A stretch of 64,000 nucleotides of DNA, taken from Escherichia coli (GTDB lineage: Bacteria > Pseudomonadota > Gammaproteobacteria > Enterobacterales > Enterobacteriaceae). The stretch is from assembly GCF_003019035.1 (NCBI RefSeq), contig NZ_CP027447.1; one strand, 5' to 3'. The position numbers and the translations under genes are program-made. This document shows, piece by piece, positions 1-42,725 of this stretch; the stretch's first letter is position 1; each line of letters begins with the position of its first letter. The notes below the pieces were generated by a model. The model saw only the letters and a program-made list of their open reading frames with translations. It had not been told where the DNA came from and ran no database searches.

Positions 1-1
1 G

Positions 2-634
2 GAGCTGCGCGTTGAAACCATATCCTGCTGGCTGGCCCGCACAATTATTCAGACAAAGCACTATTCCCGCCGTTTTGTGAATAACTCTTACCTCCACCTG
101 GGAGTGTTCAGCGGACGCGATCTGGTTGGCGTTCTCCAGTGGGGATATGCCCTTAACCCCAACTCAGGTCGTCGTGTCGTGCTTGAAACGGATAACCGGG
201 GCTATATGGAGTTGAATCGCATGTGGCTACACGACGACATGCCCCGCAACTCTGAATCACGGGCCATCAGCTACGCGCTGAAAGTTATCAGATTACTGTA
301 TCCGTCAGTGGAGTGGGTTCAGTCCTTTGCTGACGAACGCTGCGGACGCGCAGGCGTTGTGTATCAGGCGTCGAATTTTGATTTTATTGGCAGCCATGAA
401 AGCACGTTCTACGAGCTGGATGGTGAGTGGTATCACGAGATAACGATGAACGCAATTAAGCGCGGTGGACAACGAGGCGTGTATTTACGGGCTAATAAAG
501 AGCGTGCCGTGGTGCACAAATTTAATCAGTATCGCTACATCAGGTTCCTGAACAAGCGAGCAAGGAAGCGACTAAATACTAATCTATTCAGGATCCAACC
601 ATATCCAAAATCAACTCTGACTAGTATCAAATAA
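2..634 (+). CDS. Prophage protein, 5' partial (frame is open from the window start); tentatively Mom-like (GNAT-fold DNA-modification family)
   Basis: Frame open from nt 2 with no upstream stop, so the N-terminus lies outside the window; last large rightward ORF before the Mu-type end, which is where mom sits in Mu. Family assignment is from memory only. Confidence 0.35.
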
Positions 635-769
635 CTTATTTATTCCTGCTGAAAAGCAGCTCCTCATGGCATAAAATTGTTCACGTGAGTTTAAAATGAC
701 CAAATGGCAGTACAGTATTTGGTCATTTTATGGGGTGAATTTTAAAGTCAAAACGATGGTAAGGTGCAT

Positions 770-1105
770 ATGAAAAAAATACTCATAGCAGTACTACTTT
801 GCTTTGGTGTTCTTTCTGCTAATCAGGCAATAGCGGCTGTTACCTTAAGCGGTAAGTATCCTGCATGCATATCTGCTAATGAATTCGAGCGATTAAGCTC
901 AATTTTGCAACACGAAGATCAAGAGGCGTTTGAAGAGATCTTTAAGACATCATGCTTTATGCCTAAAAAGGGGGTTAAAGTTGATAAAGTTGTTTCTATG
1001 GGGTGGACCAGTGGAGTTGCGCATGTCAAAGTTTATGTAAAAGGCAATCTTTACGATCTTTGGACTAACACCGAAAATCTTCAGTCCGAGAAGGCTGGTA
1101 AATAA
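770..1105 (+). CDS. Small secreted hypothetical protein (about 111 aa) with N-terminal signal peptide; candidate prophage cargo gene
   Basis: ATG at 770 preceded by TAAGG about 7 nt upstream; N-terminus MKKILIAVLLCFGVLSANQAIA is signal-peptide-like; sits between the last phage ORF and the Mu-type end. Confidence 0.5.
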   Translation: MKKILIAVLLCFGVLSANQAIAAVTLSGKYPACISANEFERLSSILQHEDQEAFEEIFKTSCFMPKKGVKVDKVVSMGWTSGVAHVKVYVKGNLYDLWTNTENLQSEKAGK

Positions 1106-1330
1106 CGCTGTAATCAACGTGTAATCACATCTCCTACCAGCTATCGCCTGATAAAGTTAGGTGATAGCTATTTCAATACTCTCTAGTTTCACTGAAAGCA
1201 CGAAACTTAATACCTCCATTCCAGATTGCTTAATAATCGAGCATTTTTATCTTGAATGTTTTTGCGCGCTTTATCAGCCATACCCTAAGTGATCCCCATG
1301 TAATGAATAAAAAGCAGTAATTAATACTGC

Positions 1331-1407
1331 TGTTTCATTTGAAGCGCGAAAGCTAAAGTTTTCGCATTTATCGTGAAACGCTTTCGCGTTTTTCGTGCGC
1401 CGCTTCA
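1331..1407 (+). repeat. Mu attR-like end: three MuA-binding-site-like repeats (R3 1331-1352 inverted, R2 1358-1380, R1 1381-1407)
   Basis: TGTTTCATTTGAAGCGCGAAAG (1331-1352); reverse complements read TTTCACGATAAATGCGAAAAC and TGAAGCGGCGCACGAAAAACGCGAAAG; all share a ...CGAAA... core. Confidence 0.7.
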
Positions 1408-1706
1408 TTCAGGGTGAACGTCCACTCTTTTTGATCGTCAGACGCTTTCCAGCTACTTGCCAGATCGCCTTCAACGTCGGTTGAGCCTTTATCACCGTCC
1501 GTTTTGTACTGAACCAGTCGCTGATAAGACGGGTAGGTCACTGTCCAGTCGTTATTATCAATTGTCACCGCTGGGTCGAGGGTTTGTGGGTCGGCAGCTT
1601 TACCGATCACCAGCATATCTTTCGGTACGGCGGCGTGCGCAACCGGCATTGTTGTGGCAAGGACGATCGCGAGCAATGTAGGACGAAACAAAATCGATCT
1701 CTTCAT
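1368..1706 (-). pseudogene. ddpA: ddpA 5' fragment (D,D-dipeptide periplasmic binding protein), truncated by the prophage insertion
   Basis: Begins MKRSILFRPTLLAIVLATTMPVAHAAVPKDMLVIGKAADPQTLDP... (DdpA N-terminus); frame runs into the Mu end and stops after 12 foreign codons; full DdpA is about 516 aa. Confidence 0.8.
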
Positions 1707-1719
1707 GACAGTTTCCTGA

Positions 1720-2301
1720 TTAACTGGCGTGCTGTGTGCCAGGGGATATAAAACAGGTGAATTGATCAGCGAGTAGTGGGTAACTCGCTGCCTGGGGTAA
1801 TTCGAAGTGCCACCATTCGCTCGGGATACCGACAAAGCCACCGCCAGTCATAATCGCATTCAGCAACAGCCGATTGCGCTGAGCGGCTGGCGGGACGGAA
1901 GGGTGATAAGCATGGGAACGTTCGTGCATTTCATCGAACTCTGCACCCATATCCAGTATGTTCCCGTGCTCATCACGAAGCGTCAGGTCGATCGCTGTGC
2001 CACGGCTGTGATTAGAACCGACCGCCACATCAACAACATATTGCGGGTCTGGGCAGGCTTGCCACAACATCGCCTGTGCTTGTTGTGGGCGATACGCATC
2101 GTAAATCACCAGTTGTAAGCCTGACAGCTGGGCGATACTGATACTTTTCGCCAGCGCAGTAATCGCATCCTTGTGTAACAGACAACGCGCTTGCTGATAA
2201 ATAGCTTTGCCTGTGATGTTATCAGCACAGGCGTATTTCAATTCGATCTCCAGATCAGGGAAGATCACGGCTAAATCAACCAGTTCGGTGGTATCCGACA
2301 T
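1720..2301 (-). CDS. ddpX: D-Ala-D-Ala dipeptidase
   Basis: 193-aa ORF matching E. coli DdpX; 13 nt upstream of the ddpA start. Confidence 0.92.
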   Translation of the reverse strand: MSDTTELVDLAVIFPDLEIELKYACADNITGKAIYQQARCLLHKDAITALAKSISIAQLSGLQLVIYDAYRPQQAQAMLWQACPDPQYVVDVAVGSNHSRGTAIDLTLRDEHGNILDMGAEFDEMHERSHAYHPSVPPAAQRNRLLLNAIMTGGGFVGIPSEWWHFELPQAASYPLLADQFTCFISPGTQHAS

Positions 2302-2558: not shown

Positions 2559-4958
2559 TCAGATTTTCAGCGGTAACACGCTGCTCATCCAGCCTGGAAT
2601 TTCTTCGGCGGGCAGGGGGCGGGAAAAGAAATATCCCTGAATAACGCGACAGTGGATCTTGCGTAGCATCTCAAATTGCTCTTTGGTTTCGACGCCTTCC
2701 GCCACGACGGTTAAATTAAGGCTTTGCCCAATGCTGGTAATGGCTTCAAGTAAGGCAAGGATGCGTTTTTCGGTCAGACAACGATCGACAAAACTTTTGT
2801 CAATTTTGATTTCCGTTACTGGAAGACTGACTAAGCGGGATAATCCGGAAAAGCCCGTGCCAAAATCATCTACCGATAAACCCACGCCCATATCGCGCAG
2901 GATCTGAATGCGTTTAAAGATTTCGGTATCGTGTTCCATCATCATGCTTTCCGTGATTTCCACCGTCAGCTGGTGGCCGTTAATACCCCAGGCTTGCATT
3001 GCATCAGACACCTGATTAGGCAGCTGATTACTGCGAAAGTGCAGCGCCGACAAGTTCACGGATAACGCCGGGATATGAATATTCTGGCTACGCCATTCTG
3101 CTAACTGACGGCAAGCTTCCGCGATGACCCAGCGTCCAATATTTTCGATTTCACCGATCTCTTCTGCGAGAGGAATAAACCGTGAAGGGGGCACATGACC
3201 ATGCAGGGGATCGTGCCAGCGAGCAAGGGCTTCGATGCCGTACAGTTCACCCGTTTCTGCGAAGATTTGTGGCTGGTAAACCAGTTTCAGTTGGTTATTG
3301 CTAATTGCTTCTTTCAGCGCCGCGCCTAAAACCAAACGCTCTTTTACCATTTCGTTCATCGCCGGGCTGAAGAACTGCCAGCCGTTACCGCCATTTTTGC
3401 GAATAAAATCCATTGCATTGTGAGCAGTGGAGAGCAGGTAATCGCGGTTTTTACCCACGTCGTAGCTGATGCCAATGCTCAAGGTGAGCGGGAATGGTTT
3501 ATCGTCAATCATTATCGGCTTGCTGACCACATTCCGTAGCTCATCGGCGATCTGCGTAATGTTACTGACGTCGTTTTCCAGGCTCACGAGGACAAACTGC
3601 GTACCTTCGATACGACAGAGATATTGATCCGGTTTGAGTTTTTCACGAAAGCGATTGACCACTTCCAGCAATGCCTGATCGGCCCACGCATAGCCAAGGC
3701 TATCAATCACATCCTGAATATGGTCAACACCGATGAGATACACCACCGGAGAGACGGCTTTGTCGACCAGGTCATCGAGGTAATTGTGCAGGTTATTGCG
3801 ATTTGGCAGACCGGTCATCGGATCAAATTGGATGAGTTGTTCAATATGCTGACGGCTTTTTTCCTGTTCCAGCGCCAGCGCGGCCATATGCTGGCTAATA
3901 TCTGCCACGCGTTCGATAAAGGCGCTGGTTTCTGCTCCTGACGAGGTTTTAATTTGCAGGATCCCCGCCGGCGCACCATCACGCTGACGAATGGTCGCTG
4001 ACCAGCTTTGCGCATTTTGAACTTCTGCACCGTGCGAAGATGACGCCCAGTGTATCGGCATCCCGTTGCGCAGCGCGAACAGCGAAACATGCGATTCGTT
4101 GAGTACAGATTCGATGTTACGACAAATGATTTCCCCCATTTCATGAAATGGCGGGCTGCTGCACATGGCGGCGAGAATATTGCCTTCAAGCTGGCGGATT
4201 TGCCGTTCTTCGGTGATATCCGAGAAGGTCATTACCAGGTTCTGCAGATGCGCGAGCACGTCATAAACCGGGCTGATAGAGGCTTTAATCCAGATTTTTT
4301 CACCGGTGCGCGTCAACAGCAGAAATTCATCCTGATCGCGGGCGGTTTTCCATAGCAACTGTTGTAAACGAATGCGGTTATCGGCAGGGAATTCAGGAAT
4401 GTTCAGGAGTGTATCGGGCTGCATACCGCTGGCTTCGCTAATGCAGTAACCAAACATTTCGGTAAATGCGCGATTGCACTGCACAATATGGCGTTCCGGA
4501 TCGAGGACAATCACCGGTCGGTCGAGATGGTCAACAGCAATAATCAATTGTCGGGTCTGTTCTTTTTGCGCCATTTCTACGCTGGCATCCCGTACCAGCG
4601 CCAGGTAATAAACTTTCCCCTCGGCGCTCACTTTCGATAGCGCAAAACGGGTCCAGATTTTACTGCCGTCTTTTTTCTCCAGCTGCAGCTCCCGACTCAT
4701 CCCCTCGACGCGCGCTTTACCGCCTTCACGGTTATGACGAATGTATTCAGGATGCGCAGGACGCAAATCCCGCGGAATCAGCATATCAATGTTATTGCCA
4801 ATGACTTCTTCACGTTTGTACCCCCAGAGCTTCTCTGCGGCGGGGTTGAAAAACATCACTTCATCATTTTCGTTAATTAACACCGCGCCCATCATATTTT
4901 GCTCAAGGGCGGGGAAAAAAATGCCATCGGCGGCATTATCCGCATCGGTTAGCTTCAT
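2559..4958 (-). CDS. dosP: Oxygen-sensing c-di-GMP phosphodiesterase (heme PAS + GGDEF-like + EAL)
   Basis: Matches DosP from MKLTDADNAADGIFFPALEQ; the supplied ORF has an 8-codon upstream extension. Confidence 0.92.
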   Translation of the reverse strand: MKLTDADNAADGIFFPALEQNMMGAVLINENDEVMFFNPAAEKLWGYKREEVIGNNIDMLIPRDLRPAHPEYIRHNREGGKARVEGMSRELQLEKKDGSKIWTRFALSKVSAEGKVYYLALVRDASVEMAQKEQTRQLIIAVDHLDRPVIVLDPERHIVQCNRAFTEMFGYCISEASGMQPDTLLNIPEFPADNRIRLQQLLWKTARDQDEFLLLTRTGEKIWIKASISPVYDVLAHLQNLVMTFSDITEERQIRQLEGNILAAMCSSPPFHEMGEIICRNIESVLNESHVSLFALRNGMPIHWASSSHGAEVQNAQSWSATIRQRDGAPAGILQIKTSSGAETSAFIERVADISQHMAALALEQEKSRQHIEQLIQFDPMTGLPNRNNLHNYLDDLVDKAVSPVVYLIGVDHIQDVIDSLGYAWADQALLEVVNRFREKLKPDQYLCRIEGTQFVLVSLENDVSNITQIADELRNVVSKPIMIDDKPFPLTLSIGISYDVGKNRDYLLSTAHNAMDFIRKNGGNGWQFFSPAMNEMVKERLVLGAALKEAISNNQLKLVYQPQIFAETGELYGIEALARWHDPLHGHVPPSRFIPLAEEIGEIENIGRWVIAEACRQLAEWRSQNIHIPALSVNLSALHFRSNQLPNQVSDAMQAWGINGHQLTVEITESMMMEHDTEIFKRIQILRDMGVGLSVDDFGTGFSGLSRLVSLPVTEIKIDKSFVDRCLTEKRILALLEAITSIGQSLNLTVVAEGVETKEQFEMLRKIHCRVIQGYFFSRPLPAEEIPGWMSSVLPLKI

Positions 4959-4982
4959 AATTACCTCTGCATCCTGACGCAT

Positions 4983-6365
4983 CTAAAGACTGGCTTTCCA
5001 GAGTTCAACACGGTTTCTACCTCGTCTTTTGGCGATATACAGAGCTTCATCGGCTATTTGAATGAGGCGCTCATAGTCAGGATGACCATTAAACATGGCG
5101 GCACCGATGGAAAGTGAGAGGGCAATATCTTCGCCGTTTGCGGCTTTCAGTTTGGTTTTCTCCACCCGACTGCGAATACGTTCTGCGGTACGTAACGTTT
5201 CGTTTTCCGAAGCTTCAGTCAAAACAATGATAAATTCATCGCCCCCGTAGCGGAAAACATAATCACTACTGCGGACGTTGTCATAAAAGGCCTGAGAGAC
5301 TTTACGCAGAATTTCATCGCCAGTGTTATGGCCCCACGTATCGTTAATCTCTTTGAATTTATCAACGTCAATAATCAGCACTGACAGCGGTGTACCGGTC
5401 CGGTTGGCATGGGCAATTTCGCGTTTGAAGATCGTCGGCAGGAAACGGCGGTTAAGTAATTTCGTCAGTACATCCATACCGACTTCGTGGCGCGATACTT
5501 CTTCAAACAATTCACGCAACAAGGTAATAATTTGCGATACGGTATTTCTTATCTGTAATAAAAATTTCACCCGTAAACTTCTGTTATTCAAATTCCTGGT
5601 GTTACGCATGGTTTGATTGAAAATACCGTCGAAATCCTGAATCAGACGGGAGATATGGCCCACTTCGGCTATGCCGCTAAAATAATGTCGACCTTTATGG
5701 TTAAACCACAGGCCAAAATCAGCCTGGCTTAAAGGCAAACTACTGCCTAAATCAGAATCCAGCAGGACTTTATAGATAATATCTATTTCCCATGAAAGTA
5801 TTGAGGCTATTTGCCGTTCTTTTTCTTCTTCGGCGTTTTCCAGTAACGAGAAGATACGATAGTTTTCATCTTCCTTTGAGGCACTACTGTCACTAAAGGT
5901 AAACGCGCGGGTCATCACCTCCATAGCGATATCAATACTGTTAATAGAGAAATGGTAGACCTGAAGTTTTTCTGCGGCGGAATAATCCGAAGAGAAGATT
6001 ACCGGATAGAGGATTTTTTTCAGCACCCGAAACCCCATCTCGACAATTTCTACCGGAATTCCTATGCGGGCATGCACTTCCGCGACGGTATGCTGGATTT
6101 GTATTAGCCTTTCGACATCGTCAACCTGGGCAGAAAGCACGTTAATAATCCAGCGTTCCATCGCACTTTTCAACTGCCGCTCAACTTGTTCATTACTCAA
6201 GAATTCTTCGGCATGCGGGTCGATGCGGACAATTCGATAAAACTCAATACTCAGATAATGAGCATGCGCAACGGCAATTTCCGCGGCTTTAGCACGAATG
6301 AGCGGATCTGCTTGTTCGACAAGCCCGGTCCACTCATCTTTCATTCTTTTAAAATACATCTCCAT
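4983..6365 (-). CDS. dosC: Oxygen-sensing diguanylate cyclase (globin sensor + GGDEF)
   Basis: 460 aa, contains RYGGDEF; immediately upstream of dosP on the same strand. Confidence 0.93.
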   Translation of the reverse strand: MEMYFKRMKDEWTGLVEQADPLIRAKAAEIAVAHAHYLSIEFYRIVRIDPHAEEFLSNEQVERQLKSAMERWIINVLSAQVDDVERLIQIQHTVAEVHARIGIPVEIVEMGFRVLKKILYPVIFSSDYSAAEKLQVYHFSINSIDIAMEVMTRAFTFSDSSASKEDENYRIFSLLENAEEEKERQIASILSWEIDIIYKVLLDSDLGSSLPLSQADFGLWFNHKGRHYFSGIAEVGHISRLIQDFDGIFNQTMRNTRNLNNRSLRVKFLLQIRNTVSQIITLLRELFEEVSRHEVGMDVLTKLLNRRFLPTIFKREIAHANRTGTPLSVLIIDVDKFKEINDTWGHNTGDEILRKVSQAFYDNVRSSDYVFRYGGDEFIIVLTEASENETLRTAERIRSRVEKTKLKAANGEDIALSLSIGAAMFNGHPDYERLIQIADEALYIAKRRGRNRVELWKASL

Positions 6366-6689
6366 AATTCACACCCTTATAAGGCTGGGAAAGCAGACGG
6401 AATCAAAACGAAACGCAACGTGCGAGATCGACTAACTGCACCATACTCTCCTGAAATATGAAGATATACTGAAAACAAATAAGCGACTTAGGACAGTTTC
6501 AATCTACGCTACTGTTCTTCAGAAGAGTATAGCCCATCGTAATTATTTTTCGGTGACAGCGAATATCGTATGTTTTTTCATGTTCATACTTTTTTTAGGG
6601 GATTTATGACTGTTTAACTAAGTGTGGTTAATTGCGTAGTTAATTTGACTTAAGTAAGCATGATTACTAGTGGGATATTTCAAGAGGGT

Positions 6690-6719
6690 AACAAGCCGGG
6701 GGGAAAGCACCGGCTTGTT
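6690..6719 (-). terminator. Stem-loop downstream of yddW
   Basis: AACAAGCCGG ... CCGGCTTGTT 10-bp inverted repeat. Confidence 0.5.
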
Positions 6720-6738
6720 ACAAAGTAAGAATGGGAGT

Positions 6739-8058
6739 TTAACTGCCCCAACGACTTTGCAGATAGCTGACCGCTTGTTGAGTCTGTGGCTTATTCAGAT
6801 AGTCCTCACGGAACAAGATTGTGCCGCTAATTTCTGGCACGGCATCGTTAAGATCGAGCTGCTTTTTCAGTTCCGGTACGCCGCCGTTAATCATCCAGTC
6901 TGGCTCTATCTTTGAAGGTTCTCCTACTTTATAGAAGGCGATACCGATATACAGGCGGGTCCTGGTCGGTTTAACGACATCCGCCCACCATTTTGCCAAC
7001 ACGTCATAACGCGCGGCACTCCGTGAGAACGGCCAGTAAATTTGGGGAGCAATGTAATCCAGCAACCCTTGTTCCACCCATCGACGGGTATCAGCGTAGG
7101 ATTCGTCATAGGCTGCCGCGCCTCGGGTATCGGAACCGAGCGGATCGTGTGATCGGTTACGCCACACGCCTGCCGGGCTAACGCCAAATTCGACTTCCGG
7201 CTTAATGCTTTTAATGGTGTGCGATACCTTCGCAATTAACTGCTGAGTATTGTTGCGCCGCCAGTCTGCTTTTGACGCAAATGCGCCGCCGTATTTGCGG
7301 TACGTTTCATTATCATTTAGCCGTGAAGCTGGCGACTCAGTATAGAAATAGTCGTCAAACTGCACGCCATCTACCGGATAGCGGGAAACCACTTCCACAA
7401 CTATTGATGTGATCCAGTCCTGAACCTCAGGTATGCCCGGGTCGAGGACAAAGCGATCGCCGGACGTTCTGATCCAGTCGCGGTGTTGCACATAGACGCT
7501 CGCCGGTTGTTGAGACAGGGTGCTATTCAGTTCCCTGATAGTACCGGGCTTCGTATTAACCGATACGCGATAGGGGTTAAACCATGCGTGTACTTTCATC
7601 CCACGCTTGTGGGCTTCGTCGAGCATAAATTGCAGCGGATCGTAACCCGGATTTTCACCAATCTTACCGGTCATAAGATCGGACCACGGCAAAATTTTCG
7701 ATGGCCACAGGGCGGTACCATCCGGCTTGACCTGGAAAAAGACCGTGTTTATGCCGAGACGTTGCAGATGATCCAGTTTGTCGATCATCGCCTGTTGTTG
7801 TACACGTGCCCGGCTGGCGGGGTTACTAATGTTAACCGAGGATACCGGTGGCCAGTCGAGGCGAGACACCGTGGCCAGCCAGATGCCACGCATCGGTTGT
7901 GACGATTGTTGCGTCGTGGCTGGTGGCTTTGAACCCGCTGGTGGTGTCACCATGGACTCTGGAGGCGTGCTTTTACAACTACACAGTAAAAGTGCCAGTG
8001 CAACCAGTATCGCTGGTCTTCTAATCGCTAATTTCTCGTTTCGGGAGCAGATATCCAT
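6739..8058 (-). CDS. yddW: Lipoprotein YddW (glycoside-hydrolase-like family)
   Basis: 439-aa ORF; N-terminal signal with LLLCSC lipobox-like motif. Confidence 0.88.
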   Translation of the reverse strand: MDICSRNEKLAIRRPAILVALALLLCSCKSTPPESMVTPPAGSKPPATTQQSSQPMRGIWLATVSRLDWPPVSSVNISNPASRARVQQQAMIDKLDHLQRLGINTVFFQVKPDGTALWPSKILPWSDLMTGKIGENPGYDPLQFMLDEAHKRGMKVHAWFNPYRVSVNTKPGTIRELNSTLSQQPASVYVQHRDWIRTSGDRFVLDPGIPEVQDWITSIVVEVVSRYPVDGVQFDDYFYTESPASRLNDNETYRKYGGAFASKADWRRNNTQQLIAKVSHTIKSIKPEVEFGVSPAGVWRNRSHDPLGSDTRGAAAYDESYADTRRWVEQGLLDYIAPQIYWPFSRSAARYDVLAKWWADVVKPTRTRLYIGIAFYKVGEPSKIEPDWMINGGVPELKKQLDLNDAVPEISGTILFREDYLNKPQTQQAVSYLQSRWGS

Positions 8059-8135
8059 ATGTGCTGGTTTCCGGTAAACAGATGTGCGCTCATTCTCGTA
8101 CTTATCCCGGTTAAGTCAATACGACAGCAAGCACG

Positions 8136-8163
8136 AAAAAGGGAGCGATGAATTATCGCTCCC
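8136..8163 (-). terminator. Rho-independent terminator after gadC
   Basis: GGGAGCGAT-GAATT-ATCGCTCCC hairpin followed by a T-run on the minus strand. Confidence 0.7.
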
Positions 8164-8188
8164 TTATCTTATAACCATTCAGACATGG

Positions 8189-9724
8189 TTAGTGTTTCTT
8201 GTCATTCATCACAATATAGTGTGGTGAACGTGCACGCGGGTGCAGGAAGAAGTGACCTTTTGGTGCGTTCTGACTGTTGATTGGCTCCAGAGTAACGCCG
8301 GTATTCCCTTTGCCTTTACGATCATGAACAGCATAGAGAATAAAGGGCAGGGCAAGTACCACCAGGAAACTCACGACCAGTAATTCAACATACATATCAG
8401 TAGAGTCACCCTGGATGTTATCCGGCGGCAGGAAGGAAACAATAAACGCCATAATTGAAGTCAGCAGACCGACAATAGCCACGACCAGTTTCACCCCTTT
8501 ACCACCAGGGATATTAAATGTGCGTTTTAAGTCAGGATGTTTGAGAACCAACACAATGTAGCCAATAAACAGCATGAAATAAGCACACAGATAAATCACC
8601 ACCGTCAGCGCCAGTGCGATCAGGAAGGACATGTTGTTACCGCCACCGGTATTGGTGAGGATGATCAACGCGATAGAAGTAATCACCAGCTGCGAAATGA
8701 CCAGCGTTACCGGTACGCCATTTTTGTTCATTTTAGCGAATGCTGCTGGCAGCAGGTTTTTCTGCGCTGTGACATACATCCCGCGAGAAGGACCAACAAT
8801 CCAGGAAGCGATTTCCGCCAGAACACCCAGCAACAGCAGTGCGGAGATCACGCGAACCGTCCACTCAATTTCCGGTGCCACATGTGACATCAGAACGGTA
8901 AAGGTTTGCATTACCCCTGCGGAGAGGTTGATTTCATTACCCGGAATGACCATCGCAATAGACAAACCGCCAACAGAGCTTAAGCAGATTGCCGCCACCA
9001 TCAGTAGTAACATAGCCAGTGGATAGTCGCGCCCGGGGTTGCTCATTTCATTGACGTGGGTTGCGGAAGCTTCAACGCCCATATAACTCAAAATGAAGGC
9101 AACAAATACAACCAGAGTGCCCACTTTAGAGAAGTCAGGGAAGAAGGTCTTCGCATCCATTTCGATAGCAACGGGGGCACCGGAGTGCAGATAAATAGCC
9201 GCTAATGCGATCAAAATAAATGCAGGTAACAGGATACCGGCGAAGAAGCCAACTTTAGCAATTCGCGCCGTGTATTTCGTGCCACCAAACTGCGTTAATG
9301 CCAGCGCCCAAAGAATGATGAGTGCTGCAATAGTTTTGGTAATGGGGTCTTCATTCAGAGCTGGCCATTTCAGGATGTAGGAGAGTGCCCCTAACACGAA
9401 ATAGAGCATCGGAATAAAACCAATGGCGATTTGCAGATAGCCAAATGAGATCGCTGCAAATCCCCATCTCGGCCCCAGAGTATTTGATACCCAGGCGAAG
9501 ACGCCACCTTCTTCCCAGCCGTCGACGGTAGCCATTTCCGCAGCACAAAGTCCCACGGGAATAAACCATAAAATCCCGCCTAATAGCAGGAAGAAGACTA
9601 ATGAAAAGCCCGATGTTGCGAAGGTAGGGTATTCATAAACAGCCATTACCATCGATGCCGTTATGGCAAAGAATCCGAGTAATGTGAGCTGCTTAGCTTT
9701 ACCTGTCTGTACTGATGTAGCCAT
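8189..9724 (-). CDS. gadC: Glutamate:GABA antiporter
   Basis: 511-aa polytopic membrane protein matching GadC; directly downstream of gadB. Confidence 0.93.
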
Positions 9725-9833
9725 ATTATCCCCCTAAAACGGTATTCCTGTCGGAACCGCACCTGTTTTGTTCTGAAGCGTATTCAGAACAATATTTTCC
9801 GTTGCTAATGCCAGTGAACAGACTTTGGAAATT

Positions 9834-9859
9834 GTCCCGAAACGGCTTCGTTTCGGGAC
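9834..9859 (-). terminator. Stem-loop in the gadB-gadC intergenic region
   Basis: GTCCCGAAACG-GCTT-CGTTTCGGGAC, 11-bp perfect stem. Confidence 0.6.
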
Positions 9860-9879
9860 ACCGTTACCGTTAAACGTTA

Positions 9880-11280
9880 TCAGGTGTGTTTAAAGCCGTT
9901 CTGCTGGGCAATACCCTGCAGTTTCGGGTGGTCGCTGAGATATTTCAGGGAGGCTTTGTAGTCTTCCAGCAACAGTTCAGCAAAGTCCATTTCGAAGCCG
10001 CGACGACACATAATGCGCATCACCACGATGTCGGTGGCTTCACCGCCGAGAGTGAAGGCCGGAACCTGCCAGCCGCGCAGACGCAGACGTTCAGAGAGGT
10101 CGTACAGGGTGTATCCCGGATCTTCACCATCTTTCAGTTTGAAGCAAACCGCCGGGATGCCTTCGTCCGGGCGACCGGTACAGATGAACTCATACGGCCC
10201 CAGTTTGGCGATTTCATCCGCCAGATAAGCGGCAACCTGGTAGGAAGCGTTCTGTACTTTGGTATAGCCTTCACGACCGAGGCGCAGGAATTCATAGTAC
10301 TGTGCAATCACCTGACCCGCCGGGCGGGAGAAGTTGATGGCGAAAGTACCAATCTGACCGCCGAGGTAGTCAACGTTGAACACCAGTTCCTGCGGCAGCG
10401 CTTCTTCATCACGCCAGATAACCCAGCCGCAGCCCAGCGGAGCCAGACCGAATTTATGGCCTGAAGCACTGATCGATTTCACACGCGGCAGGCGGAAGTC
10501 CCAGACGATATCCGGAGCGACGAACGGTGCCAGGAAGCCACCGCTGGCAGCGTCGATGTGCATGTCGATGTCGATACCGGTGTCGGCCTGGAATTTATCC
10601 AGCGCATCGTGCAGCGGCTGCGGGAACTCATAGTTACCGGTATAGGTCACGCCGAAAGTCGGCACCACGCCGATGGTATTTTCGTCGCAGGCTTCAATCA
10701 TGCGTTTCGGGTCCATAAACAACTGACCGGGGCGCATAGGGATCTCACGCAACTCCACATCCCAGTAGCGGGCGAATTTATGCCAGCAGATTTGTACCGG
10801 ACCGCACACCAGGTTTGGTTTATCCGTTGGCTTACCTGCAGCTTCCATACGCTTGCGCCAACGCCATTTCATCGCCATCCCGCCAAGCATACAGGCCTCG
10901 GAAGAACCAATGGTGTTGGTGCCAACGGCCTGACCATTTTTCGGTGCAGGCGCATGCCACAGATCGGCAACCATGTTTACGCAACGCAGGTCGATGGCTG
11001 CGGATTGCGGATATTCTTCTTTGTCGATCCAGTTTTTGTTAATGGATAAATCCATCAACTTGTGGACGTTTTCGTCGTCCCAGGTCTGGCAGAAAGTGGC
11101 CAGGTTCTGACGAGCGTTGCCATCAAGATATAATTCGTCATTGATAATCTGAAATGCGACATCGTCGCGCATTTCGTGCAGCGGAAAACGTTTTGATTCT
11201 GCGATAGTGGAAATAGACTTTGCACCAAAACGTGAATCGAGTAGTTCCGACCTTAAATCCGTTACTTGCTTCTTATCCAT
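9880..11280 (-). CDS. gadB: Glutamate decarboxylase beta
   Basis: Matches GadB from [21 protein letters not shown] (466 aa); the supplied ORF has a 23-codon upstream extension. Confidence 0.93.
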
Positions 11281-22160: not shown

Positions 22161-22922
22161 TCAAATAGCTAAAGCACTCATCGTGTTGTCCGTGTTCATA
22201 CCGGTGTGCCTTTGACAACGGTACTCCTTAGAAACTCTCTTTGGACTGTTGCCGAAATGTTTGCGGAACGCATAAATAAAATAAGATGTACTCGCATAAC
22301 CACATTGTTCGGCAATTTTATTGACTGAACCTTCTACGCGTATCAAATTTTTTGCGTGCTGCATTCTGGCATCTAAAAGAATCTGTGAGAATGTCGTTTG
22401 CTCTTGCTTTAGTTTTTTCTTCAACAGGCTTTCACTGATGTACAGGCAGTCACAAATATCTTTCAGCTTCCATGGGTGCGCCAGCTTCATGTTGACAATA
22501 TTTCTCACTTTCCCGGAAACGGATAGCACACCGTTAGTTAATAGTGTAATGAAACCTTTGCATGCGGCAAAAATAGACAGGCAAGAAAAAAGCAAAAGTT
22601 CTGAAAAATTATGATGATTGCGTTCTTCCGAGTTGAGATAAGCAATCATTTCATTAAGCAATCCAGTCGGTACATTTGAAGCACGTAAAAACTTCGCAGG
22701 AACAGGCACCGTCACTGTCTGGATGTTAGTGCATTGTAGATATTTTTTAATGGTATTTTCATTAAATCCGATTTCTTTAAAATGCCGCTCATAAGGTTCA
22801 AAATGTGTACGAACAGCGTTATCTACCATCAGGATCTCGCCGTCAGAGAAGGCGTAATCTTTATCTAAAATGTTAGCGTTGAAAGCATGATGAATAAATA
22901 TAACAGAACAAACGAGCGACAT
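22161..22922 (-). CDS. ydeO: AraC-family acid-resistance regulator
   Basis: 253-aa ORF with C-terminal AraC-type HTH; downstream of safA. Confidence 0.9.
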   Translation of the reverse strand: MSLVCSVIFIHHAFNANILDKDYAFSDGEILMVDNAVRTHFEPYERHFKEIGFNENTIKKYLQCTNIQTVTVPVPAKFLRASNVPTGLLNEMIAYLNSEERNHHNFSELLLFSCLSIFAACKGFITLLTNGVLSVSGKVRNIVNMKLAHPWKLKDICDCLYISESLLKKKLKQEQTTFSQILLDARMQHAKNLIRVEGSVNKIAEQCGYASTSYFIYAFRKHFGNSPKRVSKEYRCQRHTGMNTDNTMSALAI

Positions 22923-41132: not shown

Positions 41133-42725
41133 CTATAACCCAGGCGCTTTCCATAACGACGTCGTCAGTCCATGATCAACCAGCCCCAGCTGATCCTGAT
41201 AAACTGCCTGCCACTTATCGCGTGAATCCTGATAAAGTTCATGCTTTTCTGGGTCTGGTGTGTGCGTCCGTTCCCAGCGAACCAGGCGTTCTCCGGTTTC
41301 TGCCATTGATGAAAAAATTCCGGCACCGACGCCAGCTGCAATGGCACATCCTAATGCAGTGGCTTCTTTGACCACCGGAATATTGACGGGTAATCCCGAG
41401 ACATCAGCGAGAATTTGACTCCATAATTTCCCTTTTGAACCTCCGCCTGCAAAGACCAGAGCGGTGGGATGAATATTCGAAAAATCAGCAATTTGCTGCA
41501 AGTTACACGCTGATACAATCGCCGCATTTTCTTCCAGCGCACGGAACAATGTCGCTTTGTTACATTTATCCGGGTCAATGGACAAGTTAATAAAGGAAGG
41601 CGCAGCGTGATACCAGGTTTTAAAGCGCATTCTGTCGGAGAATATCGGCATTACGCCCCACGACCCAGGCGGCACCCGACTGGCCATCTCTTCAAGCAGC
41701 GTATAGGTGTCGATGCCTAAACGTTCGGCAATCAGTTTTTCTTCGGCACAGAAAGCATCGCGGAACCAGCGCATGGTGAGTCCGGTAAAAAAGCTTATAG
41801 ATTCAGCTTGTACCATGCCAGGAATAACATGGGGATTAACGCGCACGTTCATTTCTGGGTCTGTCACCGGCGCGGCTAAGTTTACAACTTGCTGCCAGAA
41901 TGTACCGCCAAGAACCGCGGTTTGTGCCGGACGGACAACGCCTAACCCCAGGCAACCAAGCTGCACGTCACCTCCTCCAACGACCACCGGAGTGCCCGCC
42001 TTCAGACCGCAGAGTTCCGCCGCTTGTGAACTTACCACGCCCAGCAATGTGCCGGTTTCTTTGACAGGAGAAAGAATATCGGCCCGCAGTCCGGCCATAT
42101 CCAGCAATGCAGGTTTCCAGTCACGGGTGGTTAGATCAAGAAGTCCCGTGGTGCCAGCGTTAGAGGGATCCACCGCCAGTTCGCCGCTGAGCATATAGGC
42201 CAGCCAGTCGCTGATCATGGTGATGGTCGACGCCTGTCGGTAGATATCGGAACGATGGTGCGCCAGCCAAAGTAATCTGGGGATGGCGCTTAAAGCCAGC
42301 GTTTGCCCGGTCGCTCGATAAACTTTGTTTTCAAAGGTATTGTTGTGCAGTTCTTTAAGTTCGCTAACTTCGCGCGCCGCTCTGGCATCCACATTGGCGC
42401 AGGCCCAGATCGGTGTTCCATCATTGTTATATAAAACAATGCCTTCACGCATCGAACATGCCGAAACGGCAGCGATATACTCCGGGGCTATGCCGGCGTT
42501 GTGCAGCGCCTGGCGCATACACTCACACGCCAGTTGCCAGTTTTTGTTGAGATCAAATTCCATAGAACCAGGAACGTCCGGTACTGCCAGGTGCCGCCAC
42601 TCCGCCTGTCCCACGGCTATTTGATTGCCTTCCAGGTCGAATATCACAGCCCGAATACTTCCGGTACCTGCATCCAGCGCCATCAGGTAATACTTTGATT
42701 CTGAAGGGGTAAAGAGTCGAGCCAT
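41133..42725 (-). CDS. lsrK: Autoinducer-2 kinase
   Basis: 530-aa FGGY-family kinase matching LsrK. Confidence 0.93.

Follow-up and report, generated by a model that had tools for sequence, protein, structure and literature searches.

Right end of a probable Muvirus prophage, with an accessory gene next to mom, within the ddpA gene of an Escherichia coli lineage

Features of the locus

The stretch of E. coli DNA analyzed here (the window; 64,000 nucleotides of contig NZ_CP027447.1, assembly GCF_003019035.1) begins within a phage gene and passes, after 1.4 kb of phage sequence, into the host chromosome. The phage portion consists of the 3' part of mom, whose start lies upstream of the window, followed by a cargo segment and then by the attR end. 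The host portion opens with ddpA, on the minus strand, and has the gene order dosC-dosP-ddpX-ddpA, syntenic with the annotated ddp region. DdpA is the periplasmic D,D-dipeptide-binding protein of the ddpXABCDF operon, and its gene is non-essential in E. coli. The features around the junction are listed in Table 1; a search of the whole window against Rfam returned nothing at gathering thresholds.

Table 1. Features at the phage-host junction (positions refer to the window)
Feature	Position	Strand	Remarks
mom, 3' part (210 codons and stop)	1-634	+	PHROG 1384, "Mom-like DNA modification protein", E = 1.4e-80
Cargo ("moron") segment, 664 bp, AT-rich	610-1273		Insertion at the extreme 3' end of mom; no counterpart in Mu and SfMu
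Sigma-70-like promoter match, CTGAAA-17-TAAAAT	649-677	+	Consensus match only; upstream of the cargo ORF
ORF111 (111 aa and stop)	770-1105	+	AAGGTG Shine-Dalgarno 3 nt upstream of ATG
Possible fossil Mu-type right end	1185-1273	+	MuA-consensus site, R2-like stretch, R1-like tail
Leftover last codons and stop of Mu/SfMu-type mom, TCAGCCATACCCTAAGTGA	1274-1292	+	Now non-coding; partly repeats 595-609
Hairpin AGCAGTAATTAATACTGCT	1313-1331		Terminator pattern on both strands; between mom and R3; common to Mu and SfMu
Candidate MuA site R3	1331-1352	+	0 mismatches to 22-bp consensus; 55 bp from end; inverted relative to R1 and R2
Candidate MuA site R2	1359-1380	-	2 mismatches to 22-mer consensus; 27 bp from end
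Candidate MuA site R1	1381-1407	-	0 mismatches to 17-mer consensus at 1381-1397; carries the terminal CA
Fusion ORF, 112 aa (DdpA 1-99 with signal peptide, junction Asn, 12 phage codons, stop)	1368-1706	-	
TTCAG, predicted copy of the 5-bp target duplication	1408-1412		First five host bases; empty site in SCU-301 gtcc/ttcag/ggtg
ddpA 5' fragment, 299 nt (99 codons and 2 nt of 516 codons)	1408-1706	-	100% to SCU-301 ddpA (L005 3001-3299)
ddpX (D-Ala-D-Ala dipeptidase), intact	1720-2301	-	First gene of ddpXABCDF; still linked to the promoter

The host side of the junction

The genome of E. coli SCU-301 provides the empty site, with an intact ddpA of 516 codons (...gcattgtcc/ttcagggtgaacg). It is 100% identical to the window over 1408-2400, including ddpA and ddpX, and aligns with positions 1405-64000 at 99.990% identity and with no gaps. 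An earlier note, made from the DNA letters, had read ddpA on the minus strand from 1408 and had its frame crossing the junction and stopping 12 codons into the phage. Both points are borne out: the stop lies at 1368-1370 and the phage-encoded tail of the fusion product is EAAHEKRESVSR. The same note had ddpX and the start of ddpA cut off from the rest of the operon, which is correct as to an insertion in ddpA but not as to the ~112 codons allotted to the ddpA fragment, since the 112 residues are those of the fusion ORF in its entirety. A literature search on ddpA and prophage found nothing relevant.

The phage right end

The last phage base is 1407, and the phage sequence closes with ...GTTTTTCGTGCGCCGCTTCA; the terminal 5'-...CA-3' occupies 1406-1407 (...GCCGCTTCA, 1399-1407). 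By blastn, the terminal 134 bp (1274-1407) are 100% identical to the right end of phage SfMu, 98.5% to that of Mu and ~82% to that of D108, in agreement with the assignment of the sequence up to 1407 to a Mu-family end in the earlier note. The same 1407 bp recur in ten other assemblies with 0-9 mismatches, and all ten copies stop at the same base (...CGCTTCA) and continue into ten different, unrelated host loci. Together with the uninterrupted ddpA of a near-isogenic genome, these sibling copies uphold the proposal that a Mu-like phage transposed here. Mu tail, baseplate, gin, com and mom genes lie upstream in the sibling assemblies. For the insertion in ddpA itself, contigs assembled from the Sequence Read Archive (SRA) add 575-577 bp of phage, through com into gin, and com (Zn_ribbon_Com) and the gin C-terminus (HTH_7) are found upstream of mom in contigs L017-L021. 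A gin-com-mom module is thus situated directly inside the right end, with mom in the window and com and gin in the contigs of the same insertion.

The candidate MuA sites R1 and R2 are direct 22-bp repeats that abut the end, whereas R3 is inverted, and the distances of R2 and R3 from the end (27 and 55 bp) are identical to those in Mu and SfMu. A 17-mer MuA consensus, taken from the D108 record, has four matches in the window against 0.95 expected, a count reached by 0 of 100 shuffles, and the 22-mer consensus has four matches against 0.19 expected. With a spacing as in Mu and with counts well above those of shuffles, the arrangement of three repeats as R1, R2 and R3 (two direct, one inverted), which the earlier note had described, holds. 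A MuA-like match at 22668-22689 (three mismatches) was dismissed as within chance expectation. The hairpin between mom and R3 sits inside the 134 bp that are identical to SfMu.

Comparison with known phages

The closest similarities of the phage portion are divided among several Mu relatives. Positions 1-609, within mom, are 98.0% identical to SfMu (NC_027382) and 96.4% to Mu (NC_000929) by blastn, and positions 1-644 are 97.8% identical to PhiR68_1 (PV340575) and 95.0% to D108 (NC_013594); from ~595 the mom 3' end follows the D108/PhiR68_1 type, not the Mu type. SfMu has the same gene order, gin-com-mom-attR, and the same terminal 134 bp with R1-R3 and the post-mom hairpin, but it has no gene between mom and attR, its mom stop lying 115 bp from the end, whereas here 664 bp with ORF111 stand at the mom 3' end and the last Mom residues are D108-type. 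Repressors of the SfMu type are not inducible by heat (PMC4406740). Mu likewise has the terminal CA but is without the cargo segment and without the MuA-like site at 1185-1206; the difference from Mu in the right end is one extra small gene. D108 and PhiR68_1 share the extended mom 3' end, to 644, and also have an extra gene in the slot between mom and attR. That gene, however, is gp56 ("D108-specific protein", 148 aa, with a signal-peptide-like N-terminus), which is unrelated to ORF111 (BLASTP E = 0.18). The segment 645-1321 is absent from both phages, and their attR is 82-84% identical to 1322-1407. Because this slot is filled in D108 by an additional gene of unrelated sequence, the extra ORF represents a known type of variation.

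By these sequence comparisons, the phage is a natural mosaic of a D108-type mom 3' end, a 664-bp AT-rich cargo segment and a terminal 134 bp identical to SfMu. Such a composition accords with the suggestion in the earlier note of a Mu relative rather than Mu itself, and the extra small ORF that it had placed just inside the end is found again as ORF111 (770-1105), in a segment that has no counterpart in Mu and SfMu.

The cargo segment and ORF111

The GC content of the cargo segment is 33-41%, as against 51-54% in mom and ddpA, and blastn searches with 645-1273 gave no match in 50,697 phage records or in 5,426 complete RefSeq E. coli genomes. A Sec-type signal peptide is predicted at the N-terminus of the ORF111 product (MKKILIAVLLCFGVLSANQAIA/A), two of whose Cys residues are invariant, and its predicted fold consists of two helices and a small SH3-like beta-barrel. 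ORF111 had no family match in Pfam, PHROGs, NCBIfam or PADLOC and no match in a profile search of the PDB, and a Foldseek search against AFDB50 returned uncharacterized proteins only. StxB was rejected as its identity, in view of a match confined to the signal peptide and a score of 14.8 bits against a cut-off of 201. The sigma-70-like promoter match upstream of the ORF is no evidence by itself, because the promoter scan yielded one site against 2.3 expected in shuffles, which is no better than chance; a hairpin at 1139-1169 is without a T-run.

The relatives of ORF111 that were looked up are 50-72% identical to it, and all of them lie between ogr and att of P2-like phages (Peduoviridae; 50-70% identity in eight contexts), as exemplified by gp54 of Yersinia phage vB_YenM_42.18. 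DNA homology to the P2-like loci is limited to the ORF itself (756-1083). In the P2-like phages, as in the phage described here, the ORF111-type gene is the last before the prophage-host junction, although the P2-like phages are of another family and have a tyrosine integrase at att, as opposed to transposition here. Patchy presence among collinear phages, atypical GC content and a position between the last core gene and att were all observed for the cargo segment. ORF111 is most likely a moron that would be expressed from the prophage.

Insertion into ddpA

We consider it very probable that window positions 1-1407 are the right end (attR side) of a Muvirus prophage that was transposed by MuA into codon 100 of E. 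coli ddpA. An insertion of this type is an ordinary, well-understood event. In Mu, MuA tetramers bind R1-R3 and L1-L3 and nick after the terminal CA. In the present case, MuA tetramers would have bound R1, R2 and R3 at this end and L1-L3 at the other and nicked after the CA at 1407; the phage 3' ends would then have been joined to target phosphates staggered by 5 bp, and repair would have duplicated these 5 bp, the predicted duplication being TTCAG. This pentamer fits four of the five positions, including the central YSR, of the Mu target consensus CYSRG (PMC7350765). The eleven copies lie at eleven different loci, and the flanking pentamer fits the central YSR in nine of the eleven, against 1/8 by chance. 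Both ends of the element are seen in a sibling copy that is internally deleted (L016), where they read TGTATTGATTCACTTGAAGTACG... and ...CGCTTCA and are flanked on both sides by the 5-bp duplication ATGGC. The 1.4 kb of phage in the window contains none of the genes for the DDE transposase A, the ATPase B, the repressor c and ner, and no left end with L1-L3. The L016 copy includes the left end, an L1 site and a Mu-type repressor (HTH_Tnp_Mu_1), and its left end, TGTATTGATTCACTTGAAGTACG, presumably matches the start of the Mu left end.

A simple insertion would give a left junction of the form ...AAATTTAGCATTGTCCTTCAG/TGTATTGATTCACTTGAAGTACG..., in which ...GCATTGTCCTTCAG and ddpA from codon 100 onward would precede the left end, with ddpBCDF beyond. 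The gene ddpX would probably remain on the operon promoter, and of DdpA a stub of 99 residues would be left, followed by a 13-residue tail encoded by the junction and the phage. The prophage would part the rest of ddpA and ddpBCDF from the promoter, and loss of the D-Ala-D-Ala dipeptide transporter would be expected to follow from this separation. Exact look-up of the predicted 369-aa C-terminal DdpA product retrieved entries from other lineages only, where point mutations split ddpA, and a predicted 69-aa ORF across the left junction was not on record by exact look-up.

Alternative interpretations

The element might instead be a defective remnant, reduced by internal or Mu-mediated adjacent deletion to its right-hand part (gin-com-mom-cargo-attR). 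An inducible phage would then be lacking, and the ddpA 3' part and the target duplication might be lacking as well. The short length of phage sequence in the window, the fact that the contigs of this insertion break off in gin, and the existence of an internally deleted copy of the same lineage (L016, with ~7.7 kb between its ends) are all compatible with such a remnant. Contig breaks in gin, however, are expected of short-read assemblies at the invertible G segment and so say nothing on deletion; a full late region lies upstream in nine of the ten sibling loci; and the right end is 100% identical to that of SfMu, a functional phage, as well as to copies in many other places, which argues for recent mobility. 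Exact searches for the left junction gave 0 matches in IMG/VR and in JGI metagenomes, but these negatives carry no weight because the right junction, which is certain to exist, also gave 0 matches in both. We regard a remnant as quite improbable. Commercial MuA kits make use of the 50-bp R1-R2 end, and the same 50 bp occur in the record of a T7-like Proteus phage, apparently as a kit remnant; laboratory strains such as S17-1 carry Mu. A mini-Mu or Mud construct, a MuA-transposon library preparation or a chimeric assembly might accordingly be suspected. The similarity to Mu-type phages nevertheless extends far beyond 50 bp, taking in R3, the mom remnant, a natural cargo segment and mom, and the sequence is SfMu-like and D108-like, not that of laboratory Mu cts62. 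Moreover, four SRA contigs from separate assemblies run across the junction and match the window along as much as 9.9 kb with 0-2 mismatches, and 57 collection blocks contain the fusion protein in exact form. The recurrence of the junction and of its fusion protein in independent material speaks against an artefact, and this exceedingly improbable explanation was rejected.

A further question concerns how the cargo segment came to lie where it does, and here the stretch 1185-1273 bears on the matter. The site at 1185-1206 is a strong MuA-consensus site (two mismatches to the 22-mer, against an expectation of 0.19 sites of this kind across the window) that is absent from SfMu, D108 and PhiR68_1 as well as from Mu. 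It is followed by a degenerate R2-like stretch (1241-1258) and an R1-like tail, TTTTTGCGCGCTTTA (1259-1273). In global alignment with the real attR, 1185-1273 scores z = 4.6-5.2, a significance that rests on simple (mononucleotide) shuffles. The last 19 nt of Mu/SfMu-type mom start directly at 1274, so that mom is represented twice, by the D108-type sequence at 595-644 and by the SfMu-type tail at 1274-1292. One Mu-like phage may accordingly have inserted in, or recombined with, the mom 3' end of another. In that event 1185-1273 would be the donor's right end, now dead, and the recipient's working end would be 1274-1407. Against such an origin, insertion of Mu into Mu is extremely rare owing to Mu genome immunity: self-insertions were absent from the wild type, and 90 million reads obtained without MuB contained 85 of them (PMC7350765). 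The putative fossil ends in TTTA, not CA, the spacing between its R3-like and R2-like elements is 34 nt as against 6, and the pentamer at 1274, TCAGC, is a poor fit to CYSRG. No donor phage with an end of this type was found, either among phages by blastn of 645-1273 or in IMG/VR, where the exact site 1186-1205 had 0 matches. The resemblance of 1185-1273 to a second, dead right end is suggestive only, and an origin of the cargo segment in two Mu-like phages is possible but, in our estimation, somewhat unlikely.

Implications

With the preferred reading, that of a Muvirus prophage transposed into ddpA, the phage appears to be a natural Muvirus variant, common in public assemblies, that combines ends of the SfMu type with a mom tail of the D108 type and a new cargo gene. 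Apart from annotation, the finding is of little consequence, and the additional MuA-like site is of minor interest for the evolution of Mu ends. For the host, the insertion is a marker of a clonal E. coli lineage that keeps DdpX but in which the Ddp transporter for D-Ala-D-Ala dipeptides would be knocked out. A more speculative proposal, to which we assign a rather low likelihood, is that the ORF111 family comprises uncharacterized secreted proteins (two helices and an SH3-like barrel), encoded by the last gene before the host junction in P2-like phages and in this Mu-like lineage. Under that proposal the protein could be a new periplasmic factor for lysogenic conversion or superinfection exclusion, and 1185-1273 could record a rare Mu-into-Mu insertion or end capture that moved the cargo gene. 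The cargo protein, which is found on more than 600 contigs in public assemblies, is a candidate for screens of prophage accessory genes, being conserved, predicted to be secreted, and common to P2-like and Mu-like phages.

Similarity of the phage right end to Mu-type phages

The last bases of the phage part (1-1407) read ...GTTTTTCGTGCGCCGCTTCA, and comparison of the window with 50,697 phage records by megablast and blastn returned, with one exception, matches to Mu-type phages only. The region was divided by its pairwise blastn coordinates against Mu, SfMu, D108 and PhiR68_1 (see the table), and the translation of 1-631 corresponds to the PHROG "Mom-like DNA modification protein" (E = 1.4e-80). 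The closest known system is SfMu at the phage ends and D108 at the mom tail. These alignments bear out the earlier note, which had proposed a Mu-family prophage end, and its view that this is a Mu relative rather than Mu itself, with an extra small ORF inside the end, agrees with a segment that Mu and SfMu lack and that contains such an ORF (ORF111, 111 aa). For 645-1273 there was no DNA match among the phage records, nor among 5,426 complete RefSeq genomes of E. coli.

The exceptional record is the T7-like Proteus phage vB_PmiA_PM1 (PQ065999.1; Autographiviridae), where a 50-bp stretch at 42010-42059, ~130 bp from the terminus, matches the R1-R2 end of Mu (window 1358-1407) at 100% identity. 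Rather than biology, it most likely reflects sequence left behind by MuA-transposon library preparation.

Features of the phage right end and the adjoining host DNA, in window coordinates
Feature	Position	Strand	Comment
mom, Mu/SfMu match	1-609		96.4% Mu, 98.0% SfMu
mom, D108/PhiR68_1 match	1-644		95.0% D108, 97.8% PhiR68_1
Segment without Mu or SfMu counterpart	610-1273		pairwise comparison
ORF111	770-1105	+	111 aa
Terminal segment	1274-1407		100% to last 134 bp of SfMu; 98.5% Mu
D108/PhiR68_1 end match	1322-1407 only		82-84%
R3	1331-1352		0 mismatches to 22-mer consensus
R2	1359-1380		2 mismatches to 22-mer consensus
ddpA 5' fragment	ATG at 1706	-	299 nt = 99 codons plus 2 nt
Host genes	1405-64000		ddpX, dosPC, gadBC, pqqL-yddAB, ydeMNOP, fimbrial genes, hipBA, 5.4-kb autotransporter, lsr operon, marRAB, PTS/beta-glucosidase cluster

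The three terminal repeats had been taken for MuA sites, two direct and one inverted, and that description is correct: R1 and R2 form a direct 22-bp repeat, R3 is inverted, and R2 is 27 bp and R3 55 bp away from the terminus, distances identical to those in Mu and SfMu. A 17-mer MuA consensus taken from the D108 record places sites at 1336-1352 (+), 1359-1375 (-) and 1381-1397 (-), with four matches in the whole window against 0.95 expected, a count that no shuffle attains; the 22-mer consensus behind the R3 and R2 matches in the table is that of the Mu literature. A single MuA-consensus match in host DNA (22668-22689, 3 mismatches) was rejected as a MuA site, being within chance expectation and lacking partner sites.

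The insertion and its siblings

SCU-301, a near-isogenic E. coli, matches window 1405-64000 at 99.990% identity (6 mismatches, no gaps) and carries an intact ddpA of 516 codons. Its empty site reads ...gcattgtcc followed, at the insertion point, by ttcagggtgaacg, so that host sequence begins at 1408, from which ddpA aligns on the minus strand as had been claimed; the 5' part of ddpA is followed on that strand by ddpX, dosP and dosC. The rest of 1405-64000 is ordinary E. coli chromosome, and an Rfam search of the window gave no hit at gathering thresholds.

Ten sibling assemblies, located via the ORF111 protein, all conserve the 1407 bp (0-9 mismatches, no gaps) and terminate ...CGCTTCA, beyond which the host DNA is a different sequence in each; upstream, nine of the ten carry Mu baseplate and tail-fibre genes, an invertible tail-fibre segment, gin, com and mom. 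The Mu target consensus is 5'-CYSRG (PMC7350765); the flank in the window, TTCAG, agrees with it at 4/5 positions, and the central YSR is matched by 9 of 11 flanking pentamers, as against 1 in 8 by chance. One internally deleted sibling of ~7.7 kb (GCA_047908855.1; positions 2891-10638 of locus L016) has both ends in one locus and keeps the repressor, ner-like, gemA and mor genes plus gin-com-mom-ORF111. Its left end starts TGTATTGATTCACTTGAAGTACG..., and ATGGC flanks it on both sides, which shows the Mu-type 5-bp duplication for this phage lineage. The element behaves like phage Mu in all testable features of Muvirus membership, namely the terminal CA, the R1-R3 geometry, the gin-com-mom module and scattered sites with Mu target preference, with the fifth, the duplication, present in a sibling copy. 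It is a variant with SfMu-closest ends, a D108-closest mom tail and a cargo gene of its own.

That the junction is an artefact was considered and rejected: the 112-aa fusion protein has exact matches in 57 assembly-collection blocks, and four separately assembled contigs from different SRA runs span the junction, showing 0-2 mismatches across as much as 9.9 kb, so that the insertion is fixed and marks a natural lineage. The same four contigs add 575-577 bp of phage, through com, and break in gin, as expected from the invertible G segment, which short reads cannot resolve. All Logan SRA contigs with the ddpA::Mu junction (L017-L021) break off inside gin or at the border of the G segment, which fits such a segment and possibly a mixed G(+)/G(-) population.

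Disruption of ddpA

The junction codon becomes Asn, after which the phage supplies 12 codons (EAAHEKRESVSR) before a stop at 1368-1370, exactly where the frame had been said to end. The figure of ~112 codons for the ddpA fragment must be corrected to that in the table, 112 aa being the length of the whole fusion ORF. The insertion would leave ddpX joined to the operon promoter and would sever ddpA' and ddpBCDF. Other E. coli assemblies (L022-L026, e.g., GCA_000407965.1 KE136762.1) have ddpA split into ORFs of 83 and 369 aa with no phage, and 401 collection blocks list the 369-aa product; ddpA has therefore been inactivated independently and looks dispensable.

The mom-attR interval and its cargo gene

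The interval between mom and the right end (attR) is a variable slot, which is empty in Mu and SfMu, holds gp56 ("D108-specific protein") in D108 and PhiR68_1, and here holds ORF111, unrelated to gp56. The cargo segment is AT-rich, with a GC content of 33-41%, compared with ~52% in mom and ddpA. An identical ORF111 protein occurs in >600 contigs and, in all ten that were read, lies directly 3' of mom in a Mu-like prophage. Homologues of 50-72% identity were found, and the eight looked up (from Citrobacter, Kosakonia, Enterobacter, two JGI metagenome samples, one SRA assembly and Yersinia phage vB_YenM_42.18) all lie between ogr and att of P2-like prophages or phages, a position analogous to that seen here, as the last gene before the host junction; DNA homology to the P2-like loci is limited to the ORF itself. 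We read ORF111 as a moron cassette usually at home in P2-like phages and captured by one Mu-like lineage, its candidate function being that of a prophage-expressed periplasmic accessory protein. The gp56 of D108/PhiR68_1 (in D108, L003 1198-1644) and ORF111 both have a signal-peptide-like N-terminus, and the slot may therefore favor small exported proteins.

A fourth MuA-type site (AGTTTCACTGAAAGCACGAAAC, 1185-1206) lies in the cargo segment in R3 orientation, with 2 mismatches to the 22-mer; 0.19 sites this close to consensus are expected in the whole window, and none corresponds to it in Mu, SfMu, D108 or PhiR68_1. It is followed by degenerate R2-like and R1-like stretches that terminate TTTTTGCGCGCTTTA at 1273 (z = 4.6-5.2 when aligned to the real attR), and from 1274 by the final 19 nt of a Mu/SfMu-type mom. 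Together these features tentatively suggest that the right end of a donor Mu-like phage, now dead, became fused into the tail of mom in an SfMu-like recipient, a history that we nonetheless consider rather unlikely: the stretch has no terminal CA, its site spacing is unlike that of the real end, blastn against phage records and a scan of IMG/VR for the exact site found no donor, and genome immunity makes Mu self-insertion very rare (PMC7350765). A defective or rearranged element is improbable; it is given some room by the fact that the window does not reach the left end, the transposition genes A and B, the rest of ddpA or the TTCAG duplication. Scanning IMG/VR and the JGI metagenomes for the junctions gave no hit, even for the right junction, which certainly exists, and exact-protein look-ups for left-junction products found nothing or matched unrelated ddpA pseudogenes.

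Significance

Mu-like prophages in E. coli, their ends and their gene-disrupting insertions are textbook matter, and what merits a second look is confined to the cargo gene and the possible fossil end.
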